From a virus (taxonomy: Duplodnaviria; Heunggongvirae; Uroviricota; Caudoviricetes), in the IMG/VR virus record IMGVR_UViG_2939127364_000001: a stretch of 64,000 nucleotides of DNA. One strand, 5' to 3'. The position numbers and the translations under genes were made by a program. Positions within the stretch are counted from its first letter, which is position 1, and the number at the start of each line of letters is the position of its first letter. The notes beneath the pieces were generated by a model that was not told where the DNA came from, made no database searches, and saw only the letters and a list, made by a program, of their open reading frames with translations. Below, piece after piece: positions 32,347 through 41,077 of the stretch.

Positions 32347-33921
32347 TCACTCGTTCTCTTGAGTAGATGAGTCCCCATTCCCTCGGGGTTGATCTTGCCC
32401 GCTTTCTTGGGCTGCACCTTGATCATAAGTAAGCACTGACTTATTTTCAAGGGTATTTAGATCATTTTTTGGCGGAAAATTCAAGAGATCTTTATCAAAT
32501 TCCTTTTTCATCGCCTCAGTAATGTTCGGGAAAATCTTCTCAATAAGCATTTCCATCTGGTGACGACGTACAGAGTCCGGTGCCTGAAGTAATGACAGTT
32601 TCTCGGCAACAGAAAATTCATCTGTAAGGCCACGAATATCGAAACTTTCTGGATACGCAATTAAAGAGTGGTCTTCGTCCAGATCTGCCCCCATCCATTT
32701 CGCAACCAGTAGCATGATTTGGCGTTCAGCCCTTTCCAGACGCTCTGCTTTTGTGACAAGCAAGCTATTTACACGCTGGAAGTCATACATTTTTGCGGCA
32801 CCAGATGAATTATCGATTCCCTGTGCGTTGTCCTGCTTCGTTCGCTCACCAGCTACACCAACTGAATGGTAGATTTCGTTAATCACCGTCTTAATCGTAG
32901 TGATGATCATCTGAGCTTGTTTCGGGTCTGGTGACAGATAAAACGGCTGGTTTCCACCTTCAGAATCGTAGGTGAAGACTCGCTTTGTGCCCATTTCAAG
33001 CACTTTAGTGTGGTTTTCATCACCAGGTAAAAGCGACTGTACCGGTATAGCCAACTGGCTAAATGTCTGATCCTGAATAATGGCATCAAGGTTTGACAGA
33101 TAGTTTGCAACCGCACGATCAAGATAAGCGATATCATCGATCAACGATGGGCTGAAATACGGTGATTCACTTTCTCCAATACAATCAACAGGAAACACAG
33201 GAACTACGCCGAGATTATGCTCACCGCTATCCTCTAAAATAACTTTTGCCTGACGGCGACCTGCTCCACCAGCGCCCTTCTTCACTTCCTCACGGAACAG
33301 ATACCACTCGTTTTGTGTCCACAGACGATAACGTTGGTATTCCTGACCTGTAGAAGTAAAAGGATCTGCGTCATCACGAGCGACTTCCACAATTAACGCC
33401 CACAACATATTCCCGTCGTCGTCCCATGCCACATCCAGCATTTGCTGAGGTGAAATCCAGTAGGCGTAGGCGCGAGCATCTTTCTTTTTCTCGTCAGCTA
33501 CTGACTCAACATCACCACTCATCGTGCTATCGACAACAACCCATATGCGACCGTAAATAGACGACTGCAAATCAATAGCGGCCATAAATGAGTCAATAGA
33601 GGCATTCTGGCGAGTCGCACGTTTCCAGAAATTGCGGATCTGCTCTGGTGCCTCTTCGATATTTCTATGAATGTCTTCTTTAAAGAGATATTTGTTGATG
33701 AGGTTTACCACCTCACGAGTGTGGTTGAAGCGATAAGCACGTTCAACTCGCTCCTTAAACTCCTGATCTCCCTCTTTAAAGTAACGAAAGATATTGTCTG
33801 TAAACCAACCACGCCCGCCAGCGTAAGTGCTGGCGAGGAAGTCCCAATGTTCTTTTTTCTTTTCGTATTCCGGGTGGCGTCGCGCCACCAGATCCTTAAT
33901 TTGTTTGTCGTTCAATTCCAT
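32347..33921 (-). CDS. Portal protein
   Basis: 524 aa, immediately downstream of the large terminase. Confidence 0.75.
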   Translation of the reverse strand: MELNDKQIKDLVARRHPEYEKKKEHWDFLASTYAGGRGWFTDNIFRYFKEGDQEFKERVERAYRFNHTREVVNLINKYLFKEDIHRNIEEAPEQIRNFWKRATRQNASIDSFMAAIDLQSSIYGRIWVVVDSTMSGDVESVADEKKKDARAYAYWISPQQMLDVAWDDDGNMLWALIVEVARDDADPFTSTGQEYQRYRLWTQNEWYLFREEVKKGAGGAGRRQAKVILEDSGEHNLGVVPVFPVDCIGESESPYFSPSLIDDIAYLDRAVANYLSNLDAIIQDQTFSQLAIPVQSLLPGDENHTKVLEMGTKRVFTYDSEGGNQPFYLSPDPKQAQMIITTIKTVINEIYHSVGVAGERTKQDNAQGIDNSSGAAKMYDFQRVNSLLVTKAERLERAERQIMLLVAKWMGADLDEDHSLIAYPESFDIRGLTDEFSVAEKLSLLQAPDSVRRHQMEMLIEKIFPNITEAMKKEFDKDLLNFPPKNDLNTLENKSVLTYDQGAAQESGQDQPRGNGDSSTQENE

Positions 33922-33932
33922 TTGAATAACCT

Positions 33933-33952
33933 TAGATAATTACTTACCTATC
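33933..33952. promoter_or_regulatory. Motif B-like site at the terminase/portal junction
   Basis: tagataattacttacctatc, overlapping the terL stop and the portal SD. Confidence 0.3.
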
Positions 33953-35204
33953 GAGAACCACCAAGAATAACACGGTTTTTGACTGGATACCTACGATGTA
34001 CTGGATAGCCCAATGCGTCTGCACTATGCTCAATGCCACCTGTCTTATCCATATCTCGTGTTCCAGGCTTGTAGATGACTTTTTCCAGTGAATCAATCAA
34101 ATGCTTGCACTTCGGATCGATATACAGCCGGATATCTCCAGATGCGGTCATCAGCATTCGGTTAACAGCATTAACACGATCCGCAATTGGCGGGTGCTTT
34201 TTCGAATAATCGACACGTAAGAATCCCTTCTCTTTGAATATGTCGACGTCAGACTCCCCGCGAGCATGTTGGCGATAAGCACCTGCCGGATCTGGAAATA
34301 CCGTTATCTGTGATTTCCAGCGCCAGAAGCGTCTCTCAAGCTCATCACAAACCTCTGCCGTGTTAGAGGAAAAGAGCACCAATTCATCAATTGCCCATAG
34401 CTCACCATTTGGCTGAGGTTGCAAAATTACTGAAGACATCGGGTCAATGTTGAAGTCCTGCCCTACCCATATAGGCAACCGAGGGTTGAACTGAAGCGGT
34501 TTTACATGCACGTTACGATCGAACGGGTAGTAAACGCGCCCGGACATGTTCTCAAAGCTCGCCAGGTACTCCTGAGCGAACGATTTCGGGTCCATATCGT
34601 TCTTAGCAGCTTCAATTTCCGCCGTAGGTACAAACGGAGAATCGGCAGTTACAAACTGCCAGCTCTTCCACTGTCCCTTTCTTTGCAGCTCTACGTTCTG
34701 GCCTATCGTCCACAGTTTGTGAAATTCCGAGAAGCCTTTTGGCGTACCAATGATCAGTGCACCGCCGCGTGTCGATGAAAGAGTAGGTCGTAACACCTTG
34801 TACCAGGTGTCAGCCTTCATATCCTGAAATTCATCAAGCACTACAAAATGCAACGCTACGCCGCGCAGAGTGTCAGGCTTATCAGCACCTTTGAGGGCGA
34901 TCTCCGAACCGTTCTTCAACACGATTGTCATCGTGGTGTCGTTCTTTTTCCTAACCCACTTACGAGGCAGAACTTCCTGTAGATCGTCCCACAAAATCTG
35001 GCGAGCCATCTGGTAAGTAGGAGCGACATACCAGACCCTTTGCTTTTTTTCCTTTGCCGCCGCACGAATAATAGTGGAGATCGACAACCGGGATTTTCCC
35101 CAGCGTCGACCAGCACAAACAACTTTAAATCGATGCGGAGACTGGAAGACTTTCATCTGTCCAGAATGCAGTTGCACAAGACTGAGCGAGGACGGGATTG
35201 CCAT
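33948..35204 (-). CDS. Terminase large subunit
   Basis: 418 aa; N-terminal Walker A VVCAGRRWGKS; C-terminal acidic nuclease-like region. Confidence 0.85.
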   Translation of the reverse strand: MAIPSSLSLVQLHSGQMKVFQSPHRFKVVCAGRRWGKSRLSISTIIRAAAKEKKQRVWYVAPTYQMARQILWDDLQEVLPRKWVRKKNDTTMTIVLKNGSEIALKGADKPDTLRGVALHFVVLDEFQDMKADTWYKVLRPTLSSTRGGALIIGTPKGFSEFHKLWTIGQNVELQRKGQWKSWQFVTADSPFVPTAEIEAAKNDMDPKSFAQEYLASFENMSGRVYYPFDRNVHVKPLQFNPRLPIWVGQDFNIDPMSSVILQPQPNGELWAIDELVLFSSNTAEVCDELERRFWRWKSQITVFPDPAGAYRQHARGESDVDIFKEKGFLRVDYSKKHPPIADRVNAVNRMLMTASGDIRLYIDPKCKHLIDSLEKVIYKPGTRDMDKTGGIEHSADALGYPVHRRYPVKNRVILGGSR

Positions 35205-35836
35205 TATTCGTCCTCCCCTTCACTTCCATCATCTGTCGCATCAAATTCGCTTAGAGCTTCTTCTTCCAACGTCTCAAGCAATTCGTCATCGATGATTTCA
35301 GGCTCGTCGTCTTCCTGACGTAATTTCGCCACCTGGGAAGGCGTAAGCTCACCAAATACCAGGTTCGGAATTTCTTCCTCGTCATTTTCCGCATGATCCA
35401 TGCCCAATGCTTTGGACGAAACTTCAAAGCATTTTGCAAGGGTATTACTGGCTCTCTGTAAGCTCTTGAGAGAATCCTCAATCGCCCCTAAAGGCTTACC
35501 CTCACGTTTGGCCGTAGTGACTTCGACCATCACCATCTGCCCCAACGCATACGCCCAGCCGTCATAACGTGTACGACGTTCTTCTATCTTTTCCGCACGG
35601 GCTTTAGCGCGAAGCTCTGCGTCAGATTTAAGAGACTCACGAACCATCTTCCCAACAGAGTCCGCGCCTTTCTCTAATCCTCGCTTTTTGAAATGTCTGG
35701 AGAGTGTTTCACGACGAATGCCGTACTCTTCCTCCAGCTTTGAGAGTGTATATTCGCCTGACGTCCATTTGGCTTCAGCTTCGGCCCACTCCGCTGGTGT
35801 CAGGCGAGTTTTTACCTCGTCTTTTTCGACCGTCAT
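35204..35836 (-). CDS. Terminase small subunit (candidate)
   Basis: 210 aa; N-terminal HTH-like YTLSKLEEEYGIRRETLSRHFKKRG, highly acidic C-terminus; overlaps terL by 1 nt. Confidence 0.55.
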   Translation of the reverse strand: MTVEKDEVKTRLTPAEWAEAEAKWTSGEYTLSKLEEEYGIRRETLSRHFKKRGLEKGADSVGKMVRESLKSDAELRAKARAEKIEERRTRYDGWAYALGQMVMVEVTTAKREGKPLGAIEDSLKSLQRASNTLAKCFEVSSKALGMDHAENDEEEIPNLVFGELTPSQVAKLRQEDDEPEIIDDELLETLEEEALSEFDATDDGSEGEDE

Positions 35837-35876
35837 AGATCCCTCTAAAACACACAGAGCGCGTCCATGCGCTCTA

Positions 35877-35917
35877 AAACAACTTGTTTACTGCATCTGC
35901 TAACCAACTTGTTTTCT
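35877..35917. promoter_or_regulatory. Two copies of motif A upstream of terS
   Basis: aaaacaacttgttta and aaccaacttgttttct; adjacent hairpin agagcgc-gtccat-gcgctct. Confidence 0.4.
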
Positions 35918-35950
35918 AGGTTGTTTAATTAGGTCTGGGCATGTCTTATT

Positions 35951-36013
35951 AAGCCTGCTTCCGTATATATTTAATAAGTTACTTATTATTTATATATACA
36001 GAAGCAGGTCTTT
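35951..36013. repeat. Palindromic AT-rich element, copy 2
   Basis: 35954..36003 identical to 3315..3364; flanked by a perfect 8-bp inverted repeat cctgcttc / gaagcagg. Confidence 0.6.
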
Positions 36014-36032
36014 AAATAAGCTCCCAGACCGA

Positions 36033-36299
36033 TTACATCACCAGTAACTTCGCTTTGGCTCGACCTAAAGTGGTTAACCCAAGAGTTCGGCGGTGATAGC
36101 GATTGTCACTGCGTTGGCGCGTATGCCCTTTCTCCACCAGCCCCTTTTTTATCAGAGCGCGAATTGAGAACTGGATACTTTGCTTGGTTGTCTTGTACGG
36201 CAAAACTTCAAGCAATTCGTCCAGATCAAGTAAATGACCTCGCTCATAACCGAGATTGAGCGTTTTGATAATGTCCTTTTGTTTATCGGTTAACGTCAT
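36033..36299 (-). CDS. Small winged-helix-like DNA-binding protein (hypothetical)
   Basis: 88 aa, basic C-terminus; 10 nt downstream of the GNAT-like gene. Confidence 0.4.
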   Translation of the reverse strand: MTLTDKQKDIIKTLNLGYERGHLLDLDELLEVLPYKTTKQSIQFSIRALIKKGLVEKGHTRQRSDNRYHRRTLGLTTLGRAKAKLLVM

Positions 36300-36308
36300 G
36301 GCAAATCC

Positions 36309-37208
36309 TTATGCCGGTAAAGCAATTTCTAACGGTTTATCCAAAGGTTGTTTGTCGAATGCCAGCAGTGGCAGCGTGTCAGGCAGCCGACGACCAAAGT
36401 CAGGGTTTCGGTACACACCATACAACGGAGACGTAAAGCTCAGGTTGTGAATGTCCTTGAGCAGCTTCACAATGCTGGCCTCGTCCACCAGACTGTCGGC
36501 AATGTCCTGAATCGTCGTGCCACGATTCCGCCCAGCTTTTGCCAGGGAACTGTTCTTGTGGTAGTCCGCTACCAGATCACGCAGTGCACGGCGACGACGA
36601 GACTCGCTCATTGCGAACAACTCTTTGACGATCGCCTCGTTATCACCCGGGTCGGAACGGAAATGGCGCTGGAATACACGCAGTGCACTTTCATAGCTCT
36701 TCGGTCGCTCAGGGCGGATGAACTTAAACCCTGCTTTCATGGCGAAGGGATTGTATTTGCTCATCGAGGACTGGATCTCAATGATTGGCCGGTCGTGCAT
36801 CCTGCTAACCAGGTTAATCATTCGATAGGAGACGCCGACACCGCGGTACTGAGTGTCCACAACGGAACGGCTGATCACCGCAAAGTTGTTGTTCACGTAC
36901 CGCCCCCAATACTGGTTGGCCACGGTGGTATTGGTGGTTGGCTTCAGCTTAGGAAACATGCGATGGCGAGGCGCCAGCAGCAGTTTCGGGTAAGCCATAA
37001 CCACGACGCCCACCAGCCGGTCGTCCAGTTCGCAGCGATAATACGTTGGCGCAAACGGCTTACCATCCGTCTTGTAGTGCAGCGACTTCAGCGCGTGCCA
37101 GTCTTCAACCGTGCCTTTGGTAACGGTCATACGCTCCAGAAAGTCCAGATGACGCGGGAACTCTTCCGGGCGGTAGCGTTTGATGATGATGCCTGTCATG
37201 TCGATCAC
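36309..37208 (-). CDS. GNAT-domain protein with C-terminal extension (hypothetical)
   Basis: 299 aa; GNAT motif-A-like VVDTQYRGVGVSYRMINLV and motif-B-like NPFAMKAGFKF; 4-nt overlap with the upstream 84-aa gene. Confidence 0.5.
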   Translation of the reverse strand: MIDMTGIIIKRYRPEEFPRHLDFLERMTVTKGTVEDWHALKSLHYKTDGKPFAPTYYRCELDDRLVGVVVMAYPKLLLAPRHRMFPKLKPTTNTTVANQYWGRYVNNNFAVISRSVVDTQYRGVGVSYRMINLVSRMHDRPIIEIQSSMSKYNPFAMKAGFKFIRPERPKSYESALRVFQRHFRSDPGDNEAIVKELFAMSESRRRRALRDLVADYHKNSSLAKAGRNRGTTIQDIADSLVDEASIVKLLKDIHNLSFTSPLYGVYRNPDFGRRLPDTLPLLAFDKQPLDKPLEIALPA

Positions 37209-37459
37209 CTACGCTCGATATTGGCATTGATGAAGTCCAGGCGAAGCGATTCCATCGCCCCAACCATGACGTATGGACGCCCACCGTTATGCCAGCAATC
37301 CAGCACACTGCCGTCGTTGTTGATCATCAGCAGTGCCAGGCTCTGGCTTTTGCCTTCTCTGGCGTACTGGAGTGCTTCTTCCAGCAGGCGGATGACTTCA
37401 ACGTTGTTGTTGTCAGCCTCTTTCGATGGCTTCAGCTCTACGATCTTCAAATCAGGCAT
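37205..37459 (-). CDS. Small hypothetical protein (operon member)
   Basis: 84 aa; overlaps both neighbours (translational coupling). Confidence 0.4.
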   Translation of the reverse strand: MPDLKIVELKPSKEADNNNVEVIRLLEEALQYAREGKSQSLALLMINNDGSVLDCWHNGGRPYVMVGAMESLRLDFINANIERR

Positions 37460-38090
37460 ATTCCACCTTCACGCGTTCTTTGTAGTGCTTGGTGATCTGC
37501 ATATCCGGGCGCAGCGCGTTCTTCAGGTCTTCGTGAGTCGTCGCCACCATTACCGTCGCACCAACCTTTCGAGCGGCACGCTGGAGGTTAGATGCCACAA
37601 CCTGAGCGGTTACACGGTCGAGAACAGCGCCGAACTCGTCAGCAGCCCACACTTTAGCGCCTGACTCAATCAGTTTGGCAATCTTGAGACGATATTTCTG
37701 ACCGTCTGACATTTCAGAAGGCTTGCGAACAAACAGATATGCATCGTTCAGACCAGCCATAGATAACAACCCAAGCGCATCACTGGTAGTTTTGCCCAGT
37801 TGGTCAATGACGTTAACCTCATTATCGAAGGTAAAATCATCGATGGAGGCTACAGACAGCCCTTCATCCTTCATCTGTCGTTGCAACTCGCGCAGCACAA
37901 CGGATTTGCCGGATCCGGATTGGCCGGTGATGTACACCACATCGCCCTGCTTCACTTCCAGCTCCAGATTGTCGTAAAGCGTCCACTCTTTTTCGTCCAG
38001 ACCAAGCCCGAACGACTCAGCGATTTCCAACGTGCGCGTGGTTTTATTTACGCGTGTCTGAAACGATACGTTGATGATGTATTTGCTCAT
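37452..38090 (-). CDS. Small ABC-type ATPase (nucleotide-binding domain only)
   Basis: 212 aa; Walker A GQSGSGKS, signature-like SDGQKYR, Walker B VWAADEFG, H-loop TTHE. Confidence 0.6.
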   Translation of the reverse strand: MSKYIINVSFQTRVNKTTRTLEIAESFGLGLDEKEWTLYDNLELEVKQGDVVYITGQSGSGKSVVLRELQRQMKDEGLSVASIDDFTFDNEVNVIDQLGKTTSDALGLLSMAGLNDAYLFVRKPSEMSDGQKYRLKIAKLIESGAKVWAADEFGAVLDRVTAQVVASNLQRAARKVGATVMVATTHEDLKNALRPDMQITKHYKERVKVEYA

Positions 38091-38755
38091 GCAGCCATCT
38101 CCCCGGAAGAGATCTTCTCCGCATATGCCACAAATGCGTCTACCCCGCTTTCTCCTGTCATTTCTTCCATGTGGGCAAGCAAATCACCAACAACAATGGC
38201 AGAGCCAGCAGGGAGCGTTTTAAAGCCCAATACGTCGACAACACGTACTTCTTCCGCTGCAACTTCACGACTGATCTCGGTGTGTTCATCCTTCTGTCGT
38301 TTAGTTTCTTCGCCAAGATCGATAACTAGCGAGTCGGTGTCCATTTCTTCTGTCATGCTGCCAACGAGAACATTCAACTCACGCTCTTCAAAGCCGAAAA
38401 CCTCGATATCGTCCAGAACAAGCGACTCAAGCTCTTTTTGTAGCTTAATTGCATCGTAATCAATGCTGGCAAGTCGGTTATCTTCAAGACGCTTCGCACG
38501 AACCTCGTCATCACTGAGATCATCGCGAACAATAACCGGTACGCGCTCAAGTCCAGCAAAAATTGCAGCCTCACGGCGGCCGTGGCCAGTAATAATTACG
38601 TCGTTCTTATCGACCGTAATTGGCTGGTCAAATCCGCGCTTTTTAATGGCTGCGGCCAGATCTCGGATCTGCTGTTCATCATGCTTTTTGGCATTCATCT
38701 CATAGGGAATAAGATCTGCCGGGTCGCGATATACGATTTCAAACTTTTTGGTCAT
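38087..38755 (-). CDS. ParB N-terminal-domain protein 2
   Basis: ParB-type box ...ITGHGRREAA...ERVPVIV; start placed at ATG 38755, which overlaps the upstream stop as TAATG (the track ORF extends to 38788). Confidence 0.6.
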   Translation of the reverse strand: MTKKFEIVYRDPADLIPYEMNAKKHDEQQIRDLAAAIKKRGFDQPITVDKNDVIITGHGRREAAIFAGLERVPVIVRDDLSDDEVRAKRLEDNRLASIDYDAIKLQKELESLVLDDIEVFGFEERELNVLVGSMTEEMDTDSLVIDLGEETKRQKDEHTEISREVAAEEVRVVDVLGFKTLPAGSAIVVGDLLAHMEEMTGESGVDAFVAYAEKISSGEMAA

Positions 38756-39453
38756 TACATACGCTCCTTGTAGTAGTCGACCAGCCATACCAGAGCCTCA
38801 CCAGCGTTCTCCATTTCATTACCGGTGTTAATAGCCTGCTCTTTGATGATGTTTTTTATGGTTTCTGCAACACGATCTGACGCATCGAAAGTTACTTTGA
38901 AGCGCATGGTCTGATGTTCCGCACCCACACGTTCGGTTTTCTCTCGTTTGTCGGTATCGACAGGCTCATCACTACCACGAGACAACGCCTCCAGTGCTTC
39001 AAGGTCGATTGCCGCCTCTTTTGCTAAAACCATCGAGATTTCGTCGTCATACGGGGCGATTTCAGACAGTTGATAGTCAAGTTCTGACTGAATTTCTTCA
39101 ATGAAGCGTTGCAATGCGATTTGGTCGTCTTCACCGTATCGCTCGTTGTCCACCAGTGACATCTGTTTAGCTACGACATCGCTAATTTTGCCCACAGAAA
39201 GCACCGGAACCGTTGAAATTCCTTGCTCAATAGCAGCACGCCAGCGATGTTCGCCGCCGAGGATTTCAAAAAATCCATCTTCAAGTTCACGAGCCAAAAT
39301 TGGCTTAAAAAAGCCCAATTTTTCGATAGAACCTTTCAGTTTTTCAAAATTCTGCGCACCAACCGAATTGGTGTTCCAGGTATTCGGGCGAAGGTTGGCA
39401 ACATCAACCTGCAAAATCGTGATTTTTACATCCATTTTATTGCTACAATCCAC
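38755..39453 (-). CDS. ParB N-terminal-domain protein 1
   Basis: 232 aa; ParB box GGEHRWRAA...VPVLSV; first gene of the coupled operon. Confidence 0.6.
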   Translation of the reverse strand: MDCSNKMDVKITILQVDVANLRPNTWNTNSVGAQNFEKLKGSIEKLGFFKPILARELEDGFFEILGGEHRWRAAIEQGISTVPVLSVGKISDVVAKQMSLVDNERYGEDDQIALQRFIEEIQSELDYQLSEIAPYDDEISMVLAKEAAIDLEALEALSRGSDEPVDTDKREKTERVGAEHQTMRFKVTFDASDRVAETIKNIIKEQAINTGNEMENAGEALVWLVDYYKERM

Positions 39454-39517: not shown

Positions 39518-41077
39518 ATGACTGTTCGGATTGTATCTAACGCAGTTAATGCGCTTATTTCTGGCGCAGATGACAAGGTAAAGCAAATGGTGCAACAGAT
39601 GTTGAGCTACGAAGTCGAGACTGGCGACTGGAAGGGCACAAGCACGATGTTCAACTGGAGTAAAAACTCGTTCCCTGCTGGCTTTGCCAAGCCTGTAGCG
39701 GCGAACTTGAACAAGGCGGGCATCAAATGTGTTCATATCCGCAAAGACAAAGCCCCGGCGCTTGGTAAACCAAATCCGGCGGTTAACCCATTCCCATACA
39801 ATCCTGATTATGCGTATCAGGATCAGACTGTGGAAACACTGGTTCGAGAGGGAATGATGATTGCGCAGATCGCTACTGGTGGCGGGAAATCTAACGTTGC
39901 CTGCAAAGCAGCTGCACGTATCGGTCGAATGACATTATTTTTAACAACCCGCTCTGTTCTGATGTTTCAAATGGCCGAAAACTTCCAGAGATCCATCGAC
40001 TACCGCGCCGAAAATGGCGAACCGTGGTTAAAAGACCAAAAGGTTGGAGTCATTGGCTCTGGTGAGTTCCAGGTATCACGACATATCAACGTCGCTACAG
40101 TTCAAACTCTGGCAAGTTTCCTTGAAGAACCACCACGCGATGCAACTCCAGATAAGAAGAGCTACCACCTCAAACGTCGGGACTTGGTGAAACGCTTCCT
40201 TTCAAGTGTGTCTCTGCTTATTCTGGAAGAGGCGCATGAGTCTTCAGGTTCTAATTTCTATGACATTGCCAGATTATGTGTGAACGCAGACTATCGTCTG
40301 GCACTTACGGCCACGCCGTTCATGAAGGATTCTACAGAAGCCAACATGCGTCTGATGGCTGTGGCTGGGCGAATTGAAATCAAAGTCACAGAAAAGTACC
40401 TGATTGATCGAGGCATTCTGGCAAAACCGTACTTCCTTTATCATAAAGTTGCCTACAAGCCAGACGAGGTCAGAATAAAGGCGGAACTTGCCAACAAACA
40501 CCTCAATTTTAGAGTAGGTATGAGCACAGCCTACCAAAAGGCTTATCAGTTGGGCATCGTGTATAATTTGGGACGTAATGAGGCCATTGTTCGCGAAGCA
40601 TTGCTCTATAAGCAACATTCTCTCAATTGTATGACTCTGGTTCGTCTTAAACGCCACGGGAAAATCCTGATGGAAATGATGAAAGAGTCCGGCCTTAGAG
40701 TTGACTTCATTTATGGGGAATCGAACCAGTCGACAAGGCAAGCAAAGCTGAACAGTTTAGCGTCTGGTGAAATAGATGTTTTAATAGGCTCGACTATTCT
40801 GGATGTTGGTGTTGATGTGCCAAGCGTTGGTGCGGTCATTCTTGCTGGTGGTGGGAAAGCAGAAGTTGAAATGAGACAGCGTGTCGGTCGTGGCTTACGA
40901 GCCAAGAAGAATCAGGCAAACGTGTGTTTTATCACTGATTTCATTGACATTAGCAACAAATACCTGTTGTCTCACTCTTATGAGCGAAAACACATCATCG
41001 ACACCACACCTGGCTTTGCAGAAGGTGTATTGCCTATTGATGGCGCATTCGATTTTGGAGTTCTGAAACGAGATTAG
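39518..41077 (+). CDS. Superfamily 2 DEAD/DEAH-like helicase
   Basis: 519 aa; motif I ATGGGKSNV, motif II LILEEAHE, motif III TATP, motif VI QRVGRGLR. Confidence 0.75.
   Translation: MTVRIVSNAVNALISGADDKVKQMVQQMLSYEVETGDWKGTSTMFNWSKNSFPAGFAKPVAANLNKAGIKCVHIRKDKAPALGKPNPAVNPFPYNPDYAYQDQTVETLVREGMMIAQIATGGGKSNVACKAAARIGRMTLFLTTRSVLMFQMAENFQRSIDYRAENGEPWLKDQKVGVIGSGEFQVSRHINVATVQTLASFLEEPPRDATPDKKSYHLKRRDLVKRFLSSVSLLILEEAHESSGSNFYDIARLCVNADYRLALTATPFMKDSTEANMRLMAVAGRIEIKVTEKYLIDRGILAKPYFLYHKVAYKPDEVRIKAELANKHLNFRVGMSTAYQKAYQLGIVYNLGRNEAIVREALLYKQHSLNCMTLVRLKRHGKILMEMMKESGLRVDFIYGESNQSTRQAKLNSLASGEIDVLIGSTILDVGVDVPSVGAVILAGGGKAEVEMRQRVGRGLRAKKNQANVCFITDFIDISNKYLLSHSYERKHIIDTTPGFAEGVLPIDGAFDFGVLKRD

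Follow-up and report, generated by a model that had tools for sequence, protein, structure and literature searches.

TmcA and NAT10 couple ATP hydrolysis to acetylation of a base in the synthesis of N4-acetylcytidine. In these enzymes a P-loop ATPase is followed by a GCN5-related N-acetyltransferase (GNAT) domain and then by a C-terminal helical domain. Mom of phage Mu is a GNAT-fold adenine N6 carbamoylmethyl transferase. In the DpdA/DpdB and DndB systems and in ParB-methyltransferase fusions, an NTPase of the ParB/Srx superfamily works with, or is fused to, a DNA-modifying enzyme. The phage 5-methylpyrimidine (thymine) dioxygenases (5mYOX) are stimulated in vivo and in vitro by a ParB protein without a DNA-binding domain, and they are often found near terminases (PNAS 2026, PMC13229309). 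Here we describe an operon on the minus strand at 36033..39453 of a 64,000-nucleotide stretch of tailed-virus DNA (IMG/VR record IMGVR_UViG_2939127364_000001; this whole stretch is called the window below). It encodes two ParB-type proteins, an ATP-binding cassette (ABC) ATPase and a GNAT-fold protein beside the terminase genes. We propose, with a probability of about 0.4 and by analogy with the systems above, that the operon may serve ATP-driven, ParB-assisted and acyl-CoA-dependent acylation of viral DNA around packaging. We are far more confident that the ParB, ABC and GNAT proteins make up a single machine associated with DNA and packaging than we are of this specific mechanism.

The locus resembles the 5mYOX systems in that a phage ParB protein, with an NTP-binding N-terminal domain and no DNA-binding domain, is encoded beside an enzyme gene, often near a terminase. 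It differs from them in that the enzyme is an ABC-ATPase/GNAT pair rather than an iron- and 2-oxoglutarate-dependent dioxygenase, in that there are two ParB paralogues, and in that the activity on DNA is a proposed one. It shares the order of domains with TmcA, whose ATPase is of the helicase type, whereas the ATPase here belongs to the ABC class. Mom, by contrast, has neither an ATPase nor a ParB partner and is not linked to a terminase. The Dpd, Dnd and ParB-methyltransferase systems serve host defence or restriction-modification, whereas the module here is viral and terminase-linked and contains no transglycosylase, sulfur-transfer or methyltransferase domain. The nearest architecture is that of COG2401/MK0520, which joins the same two domains, an ABC-type ATPase and a predicted acetyltransferase. 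That family is a single gene without an assigned function, whereas here the two domains come from separate genes, and a variable slot separates these. No description of a linkage of COG2401 to ParB and terminase was found in the literature.

The operon consists of the following genes.

38755..39453, minus strand: ParB1, 232 amino acids (226 from the ATG at 39435), a protein with a ParB N-terminal (CTPase-type) domain
38087..38755, minus strand: ParB2, 222 amino acids, a second protein with a ParB N-terminal domain
37452..38090, minus strand: soluble ABC-type ATPase, 212 amino acids, nucleotide-binding domain only
37205..37459, minus strand: 84-residue protein (phrog_796), encoded by an optional gene inserted between ABC and GNAT
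36309..37199, minus strand: GNAT-fold acyltransferase-like protein, 296 amino acids; the reading frame reaches a GTG at 37208 (299 amino acids)
36033..36299, minus strand: 88-residue probable winged-helix protein, the sixth gene of the operon

The 212-residue protein consists of a whole ABC nucleotide-binding domain of the transporter type (PF00005, E 5e-13). The first-pass annotation, made from the sequence before any database search, had recognized its ABC motifs; in the fused family described below, the Walker A motif, the signature, Walker B with the catalytic Glu, and the D-loop and H-loop residues are invariant or nearly so. A search for homologues of the ABC protein returned only close relatives with at least 85% identity. 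No membrane or permease gene was found in the operon, and the homologues in the sample examined are fused to GNAT, ParB or family-B DNA polymerase (PolB) domains, never to a permease.

The GNAT protein does not match any Pfam family at threshold (Acetyltransf_10, E 0.038), and sequence searches of the PDB with the protein and its profile gave nothing significant. An AlphaFold2 model built from 33 homologues (pLDDT, the predicted local distance difference test, 87.4) shows an N-terminal GNAT domain followed by a helical C-terminal domain of about 130 residues. The motifs QYRGVGVS and NPFAMKAGFKF, which had been read as GNAT motifs from the sequence, correspond to motif A (Q/R-x-x-G-x-G/A) and motif B, and the assignment of the fold is supported by the model and a fold search. 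R122, G125, E144 and an H-Y-K triad are invariant. The Arg-Gly pair of motif A and a Glu of strand 5 are, across the fused family, invariant or nearly so. The protein is strongly basic (pI 9.9, charge +16). Judged by these residues, the ABC-GNAT enzyme looks catalytically active.

The two proteins had been taken as a separate "mini ABC ATPase" and "GNAT protein". The domain calls hold, but the separation does not: elsewhere they are two halves of one fused enzyme with the COG2401 architecture. JGI and some GenBank records name both proteins [quoted passage not shown] (COG2401/MK0520). The GNAT-family profile, searched against 1.8 billion representative proteins, gave 973 relatives, many of them 450-500 amino acids long and matching in the C-terminal half; Pfam places ABC_tran in the N-terminal halves of these longer relatives. 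The AlphaFold2 model of one fused homologue (P0277; pLDDT 90.9, predicted TM-score 0.86) is a single rigid two-domain body. Unusual ABC-GNAT fusions include a PolB-ABC-GNAT protein of 1260 amino acids (P0310), a protein with a LAGLIDADG intein after Walker B inside the ABC domain (P0286), and P0296. Single ParB-ABC-GNAT polypeptides are encoded at three loci, L126 (7011-9011), L177 and L191, and the N-terminal 250 residues of the first of these match phrog_620 (E 6e-17). From these domain architectures, the ABC protein is predicted to be the motor half, and the GNAT protein the catalytic half, of a split ABC-GNAT enzyme.

ParB1 and ParB2 both score above the curated Pfam cut-off for ParB_N (PF02195, 26.3 bits), with 49.9 bits (E 3e-13) and 35.0 bits (E 1.5e-8), respectively, which bears out the earlier recognition of ParB N-terminal boxes in the two proteins. 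The boxes of ParB1 are near the consensus (GGEHRWRAA against GERRYRAA, and VDNERY against VENLQR), whereas the GHGRREAA box of ParB2 is divergent. ParB1 belongs to phrog_723 (E 2e-79) and can be aligned with the N-terminal, CTP-binding domain of Spo0J, ParB and Noc structures. A search for its homologues returned only close relatives, at least 85% identical. ParB2 belongs to phrog_930 (E 1e-112) and also aligns to solved ParB/Spo0J/Noc N-terminal domains; it matches phrog_498 (ParB-MTase, E 5e-32) and the N-terminal region of PADLOC MTase_II (PDLC03229, E 3e-17), and is most like the ParB domain at the N-terminus of phage ParB-methyltransferase fusions. Both proteins are acidic (pI 4.6 and 4.5). 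Their alignments to PDB structures end after the N-terminal domain, and no HTH_ParB domain was matched in either at E<=0.1, in a search that does find this domain in the ParB of L126. No ParA/MinD-type gene is present in the operon, where the sole ATPase is the ABC nucleotide-binding domain.

Nucleotide identity of the region is 97% with Escherichia phage CMS-2020a and with Cyrano, and 87% with Salmonella phage SSU5, which identifies the window as an SSU5-like phage-plasmid. The operon lies at the boundary between a divergent helicase gene of superfamily 2 (SF2) and the packaging genes, the latter all on the minus strand.

39518..41077, plus strand: SF2 helicase, divergent (ResIII/DEAD/Helicase_C)
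35837..36032, no strand: spacer between the operon and TerS, 196 nucleotides, with a palindrome and two copies of AAACAAnTTGTTT
35204-35836, minus strand: TerS-like protein (phrog_867, E 2e-100)
33948-35204, minus strand: TerL, large terminase (Terminase_6N/6C; phrog_2)
32347-33921, minus strand: portal, downstream of TerL

This arrangement is conserved far from the window. In tblastn searches of four distant siphoviruses of about 110 kb (Pseudomonas nickie, Rhizobium RHEph10, Stenotrophomonas ANB28 and Xanthomonas JGB6), all four had the order helicase on the minus strand, then ParB, ParB, ABC, GNAT, small protein, TerS, TerL and portal. Identity to the window was 54-57% for ABC, 56-61% for TerL, 47-50% for portal, 34-44% for GNAT, and 31-43% for ParB1 and ParB2. 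Iterated custom hidden Markov models (HMMs) were then run over 168 fetched loci for synteny, and the order ParB-ParB-ABC-GNAT-wHTH-TerS-TerL-portal (wHTH, the 88-residue winged helix-turn-helix protein) held in every member of the 110-kb lineage. The ABC protein is as well conserved as TerL, and within the lineage the module is as conserved as terminase and portal. The core of the module is the ParB protein or proteins with ABC and GNAT, to which the wHTH protein is added in this lineage. The position of the SF2 helicase is conserved only within the 110-kb lineage. The helicase was rejected as a part of the module: Nonlabens and Tenacibaculum phages also encode helicases close to ABC-GNAT, but these resemble it only as SF2 helicases in general do.

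Co-occurrence of these genes across phage genomes, a point raised by the first-pass annotation, extends far beyond this phage. Sixty-seven records of the phage collection contain a relative of the fused ABC-GNAT protein. In Pasteurella Pmp13, S. pyogenes 315.4, Gordonia Mariokart and Jace, and Leptospira LE4, ABC-GNAT comes straight after a ParB_N gene, and the two usually overlap; at these five loci the terminase genes (TerL; TerS in Jace) lie 0.3-3 kb downstream of ABC-GNAT. Thus both adjacency of ParB to ABC-GNAT, in these five, and its fusion, in the three polypeptides above, are observed. When 100,044 species genomes were scanned with the fused family, 80 loci emerged (L171-L250); nearly all are in Bathyarchaeia, Nitrososphaeria and Caldarchaeales, whose genomes contain several copies each. 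TerL is directly adjacent to ABC-GNAT on the same strand in 56 of the 80, upstream in 43 and downstream in 13. One of them (L239, 6487-9359) has the order tail tube, tail, TerL, ABC-GNAT, integrase and host tRNA synthetase, and is an integrated head-tail provirus. The viruses in which the module neighbours the terminase have hosts in at least four bacterial phyla and among the TACK archaea.

Some neighbours of ABC-GNAT in single loci should also be mentioned. In S. pyogenes 315.4, two genes past ABC-GNAT and ahead of TerS and TerL, there is an ASCH-domain gene (L006:5981-6358); the YqfB N4-acylcytosine amidohydrolases belong to the ASCH family. In Gordonia Jace, a gene annotated as aspartate decarboxylase (L254:6059-6484) directly follows ParB and ABC-GNAT, which might point to an acyl or aminoacyl donor of an unusual kind. 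On one environmental contig from the sample of the fused clade (L109:9429-11996), a protein of 855 amino acids with a SAM-dependent methyltransferase domain (Methyltransf_33) and a HerA-type ATPase domain is encoded after ABC-GNAT.

The domain identities, the ParB/ABC/GNAT fusions and the linkage to terminase across bacteria and archaea are direct observations. The substrate (DNA), the chemistry and timing of the reaction, and any protection that it gives are inferred from these. The core of the proposed machine would be an ATP-driven acyltransferase, split here into the ABC ATPase and the basic GNAT protein. It would be served by the two acidic proteins with ParB-type NTPase domains, which have no DNA-binding domain of their own, and in this lineage by the small wHTH DNA binder. 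The machine might act on replicated phage DNA in the run-up to packaging. The ParB proteins and the wHTH protein would recruit the enzyme to DNA or activate it there, and ATP-dependent dimerisation of the ABC domains would drive the GNAT domain onto a base. An acyl group would then pass from acyl-CoA to an exocyclic amine; the first candidate for this amine is N4 of cytosine, and the second is N6 of adenine. The packaged DNA would thereby bear a protective mark, as with Mom, and the likely benefit would be protection from host nucleases.

This proposal draws on the pairing of a basic GNAT protein (+16) with acidic ParB proteins that have no HTH, and on fusions to DNA enzymes such as PolB. Further grounds are the conservation and apparent activity of a transferase coupled to an ATP-sandwich motor, and its near-obligate association with TerL, the packaging ATPase-nuclease. 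The ASCH gene of prophage 315.4 is a lead to the chemistry. The proposal also draws on structural similarity. In a Foldseek search of the PDB with the 299-residue GNAT model, the best match was TmcA (E 3.6e-5, 323 columns, TM 0.31), with Mom eighth and NAT10 ninth. An hhalign comparison of the fused family with E. coli TmcA was collinear over 263 columns, through the P-loop and GNAT domains, but weak (E 0.0017, probability 15%); in this weak alignment the invariant HY[RK] of the family falls on HYR of TmcA. In its widest form, the proposal would make ABC-GNAT an ancient new class of ATP-dependent DNA acyltransferase, tied to TerL of bacterial and archaeal head-tail viruses. It would write an N-acyl base, most plausibly N4-acetyl-deoxycytidine, with ParB CTPases as optional loaders. 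We put this wider version forward only tentatively, and consider it doubtful.

Several results weigh against acylation of DNA by this module. Polyamine acetyltransferases reach E 4e-5 in the Foldseek search, indistinguishable from TmcA, and the TM-scores are low, about 0.3; the scores of TmcA and Mom are equalled by those of polyamine and protein acetyltransferases, so that the fold matches are not discriminating. HMMER searches of PDB sequences found nothing. The hhalign comparison with Mu Mom was null (probability 0.3%), and membership of the Mom family was rejected, as the similarity is that of the generic GNAT fold. No phage with the module is known to us to contain a modified base. In the neighbourhood of most archaeal loci there is no ParB gene. 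This means that ParB is not obligatory for the enzyme, that the invariant pair is ABC-GNAT and terminase, and that ParB is a frequent bacterial add-on. In prophage 315.4 the GNAT half appears to be split off as an open reading frame (ORF) of 89 codons. ASCH was not found in the other sampled loci, and was rejected as a recurrent partner because it occurs in only one lineage of the sample. A scan for sigma-70 promoters gave none convincing for the operon.

The main rival is a protein acetyltransferase coupled to packaging; a protein target would fit the TerL linkage equally well. The DNA-associated enzyme would acetylate a protein at or close to the DNA, either terminase (TerS or TerL) or portal, as a control of packaging, or host nucleoid proteins such as HU or Alba, stripped ahead of the terminase. 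Most characterised GNATs act on proteins or small molecules, the fold matches are dominated by Naa10, RimI and HP0935, and the tightest conserved linkage is with TerL, in either gene order and even without ParB. However, the ParB-family partners, the PolB fusions and the TmcA-like layout of ATPase and GNAT point to nucleic acid. No precedent was found for an acetyltransferase in tailed-phage packaging, and most tailed phages package their DNA without such an enzyme; a protein target thus seems unlikely to us. Another rival is a non-catalytic or structural role in packaging. The ParB proteins and wHTH would read the adjacent palindromic cos or pac region, ABC-GNAT would be an ATP-dependent clamp or loader that aids assembly of the terminase, and the GNAT domain would be only a scaffold. 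The operon abuts a large palindrome that contains the SSU5 record ends, the gene order with TerS and TerL is fixed everywhere, and ABC is as conserved as TerL. But a separate TerS-like protein is already present, and the acyl-CoA pyrophosphate-binding motif and the candidate catalytic Glu are invariant from Enterobacteria to Bathyarchaeia, which argues for catalysis. We therefore regard a purely structural accessory as rather improbable. The enzyme might also act on RNA, acetylating tRNA or mRNA, or might counter defence other than by marking DNA, for example by acylation of a host immune signal; ParB would then serve it as an NTPase cofactor. The structural match that ranks first, TmcA/NAT10, acts on RNA, ASCH proteins have been reported as erasers of tRNA N4-acetylcytidine, and morons of the anti-defence type, such as the DUF2829 gene described below, cluster inside the operon. 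Against this, the partners (ParB, wHTH and the PolB fusions) are DNA proteins, and the module is a lineage-core set with fixed terminase synteny rather than a variable accessory island. These roles appear quite improbable.

The remaining readings follow from the current names of the proteins. RefSeq and PHROGs name both ParB proteins "ParB-like partition protein", and the duplicated ParB genes of related phage-plasmids were placed under partition by Pfeifer et al. (2021). Plasmid partition by two ParB proteins is nevertheless hardly credible and was rejected. Neither protein has HTH_ParB, the operon has no ParA, and ParB-ABC-GNAT occurs in the chromosomal S. pyogenes 315.4 prophage and in host-isolated phages (nickie, LE4, Gordonia). 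The arrangement is counted also in integrated archaeal proviruses, and ParB is fused to ABC-GNAT in some homologues. The name "ABC transporter ATP-binding subunit" in databases would suggest a transporter, and ABC ATPases are part of several defence systems, one of the roles that the first-pass annotation had considered. Both are as poorly favoured as partition, and both were rejected. The operon has no membrane subunit, and its nucleotide-binding domain has homologues fused to GNAT instead of a permease. The module is carried by the viruses themselves beside their own terminase, and is conserved like TerL and portal in isolated phages and phage-plasmids, which makes a defence cassette unlikely. 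PADLOC gave only the ParB domain of MTase_II and matches at the level of the P-loop (mad3, PtuA), with none for the GNAT or the 84-residue protein. DNA modification and a packaging accessory, two of the other roles suggested at first, are still live options.

The five minus-strand ORFs listed at the outset for 36033-39453 are all present in the sequence, but the list missed a sixth gene, that of the 88-residue protein (36033-36299), which is conserved throughout the lineage. Overlaps of 1-8 nucleotides had been given for all four junctions. At the ParB1/ParB2 junction, which reads TAATG, the last A of the ParB1 stop codon TAA (38757-38755) is common to the ATG of ParB2 (38755-38753). The ParB2/ABC junction is an ATGA overlap (38090-38087), and ABC and the 84-residue gene overlap by the 8 nucleotides ATGCCTGA (37459-37452). 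The fourth, between the 84-residue gene and GNAT at 37208-37205, reads GTGA, not ATGA. GNAT homologues in databases are mostly 296 amino acids long, so that the start is probably the ATG at 37199, 5 nucleotides past the stop of the 84-residue gene. The six genes are tightly packed even with this start. The 88-residue gene begins 9 nucleotides past the GNAT stop, with AAGGA in front of it. ParB2, started at 38755, has 222 amino acids, where the maximal ORF would give 233. The start of ParB1 is ambiguous between the GTG at 39453 and the ATG at 39435, the latter being that of most NCBI entries. Codon differences from SSU5 (synonymous to non-synonymous) are 55:3 for ABC, 49:5 for GNAT, 88:31 for ParB1, 87:23 for ParB2 and 37:10 for wHTH. 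The large excess of synonymous differences means that these are real constrained genes under strong purifying selection, and not chance ORFs. The description of the operon as one co-inherited, tightly packed unit beside the terminase is supported.

The 88-residue protein is basic (pI 10.2) and belongs to phrog_900 (E 2e-45). It has weak winged-helix matches to Sta1/Lrs14 and to the DNA-binding domain of LexA, and is a probable winged-helix DNA binder. In the iterated HMM searches it was found between GNAT and TerS in 116 loci, throughout the 110-kb lineage. Between its gene and TerS lies an imperfect palindrome of 99 nucleotides with nested 16-nucleotide arms (35932-36030). The linear GenBank record of SSU5 begins and ends inside the homologous palindrome, which makes the palindrome here a candidate cos or pac site. 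The whole spacer (35837..36032) is thus a candidate packaging (cos/pac) and/or promoter region.

The same spacer contains two copies of the 13-nucleotide palindromic motif AAACAAnTTGTTT, at 35877-35889 and 35902-35914. Further sites are at 2434, 5361, 45998, 47495, 48882, 51691, 51742 and others, giving 13 in total. With up to two mismatches, there are 24 strand matches in the window against 3 expected, about 8-fold, a number reached in 0 of 100 shuffles. Nine of the 13 sites are intergenic, typically 15-55 nucleotides upstream of minus-strand gene starts. The enrichment and the upstream placement suggest a phage-specific regulatory element, probably a promoter or operator, and a separate transcription start for the terminase genes.

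The 84-residue protein had been counted as a member of the unit, but it turns out to be an optional insert. Among the sampled loci, the gap between ABC and GNAT holds the 84-residue gene in 34, an unrelated gene of 183 codons (phrog_25742) in 30, and nothing in about 27, all of these last close relatives. Some of the loci with an empty slot carry a 100% identical GNAT protein, and ABC and GNAT overlap there by 4 nucleotides. Because of this variable slot, Cyrano and PhiR41_1 cover 92% of the query in two pieces. Other contents of the slot are thioredoxin-like, DUF2829, HAD-like or membrane proteins. DUF2829 is presumably the Tad2 anti-Thoeris family. Small accessory genes have a hot-spot at the ABC/GNAT junction of related phages (L049:7453-8004, L131, L151, L155, L003). 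The 84-residue protein was not detected outside the SSU5 group and has no match in Pfam, NCBIfam or PADLOC. In view of the slot analysis and its absence from Cyrano and PhiR41_1, it was rejected as a core subunit; it is an unrelated passenger.

The first-pass annotation knew of no described system with this composition. The literature likewise gave no functional description, with many subscription journals outside the coverage. In the available literature, no account was found of a ParB, ABC-GNAT and terminase module or of its function, nor any functional study of COG2401/MK0520, of the module in SSU5, nickie or RHEph10, or of the Bathyarchaeia proviruses. The two-domain ABC-GNAT architecture is already catalogued as COG2401. 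As the mechanism rests on analogy, we do not call the module categorically new.

In phage-plasmids of Klebsiella, E. coli and Salmonella that are common in the clinic, these genes are at present annotated as "partition proteins" and "ABC transporters". The present analysis indicates that both labels are wrong. If the target is a protein instead of DNA, the module would represent a hitherto hidden regulatory step in genome packaging. If the module acylates DNA, it would be a new route of restriction evasion, in which ParB proteins serve as cofactors of an enzyme and not as segregation factors, and it might provide a tool for enzymatic labelling of DNA. ABC-GNAT as a DNA acyltransferase would then mean a new chemical class of natural DNA modification, and would show ABC ATPases and ParB proteins in a new function.

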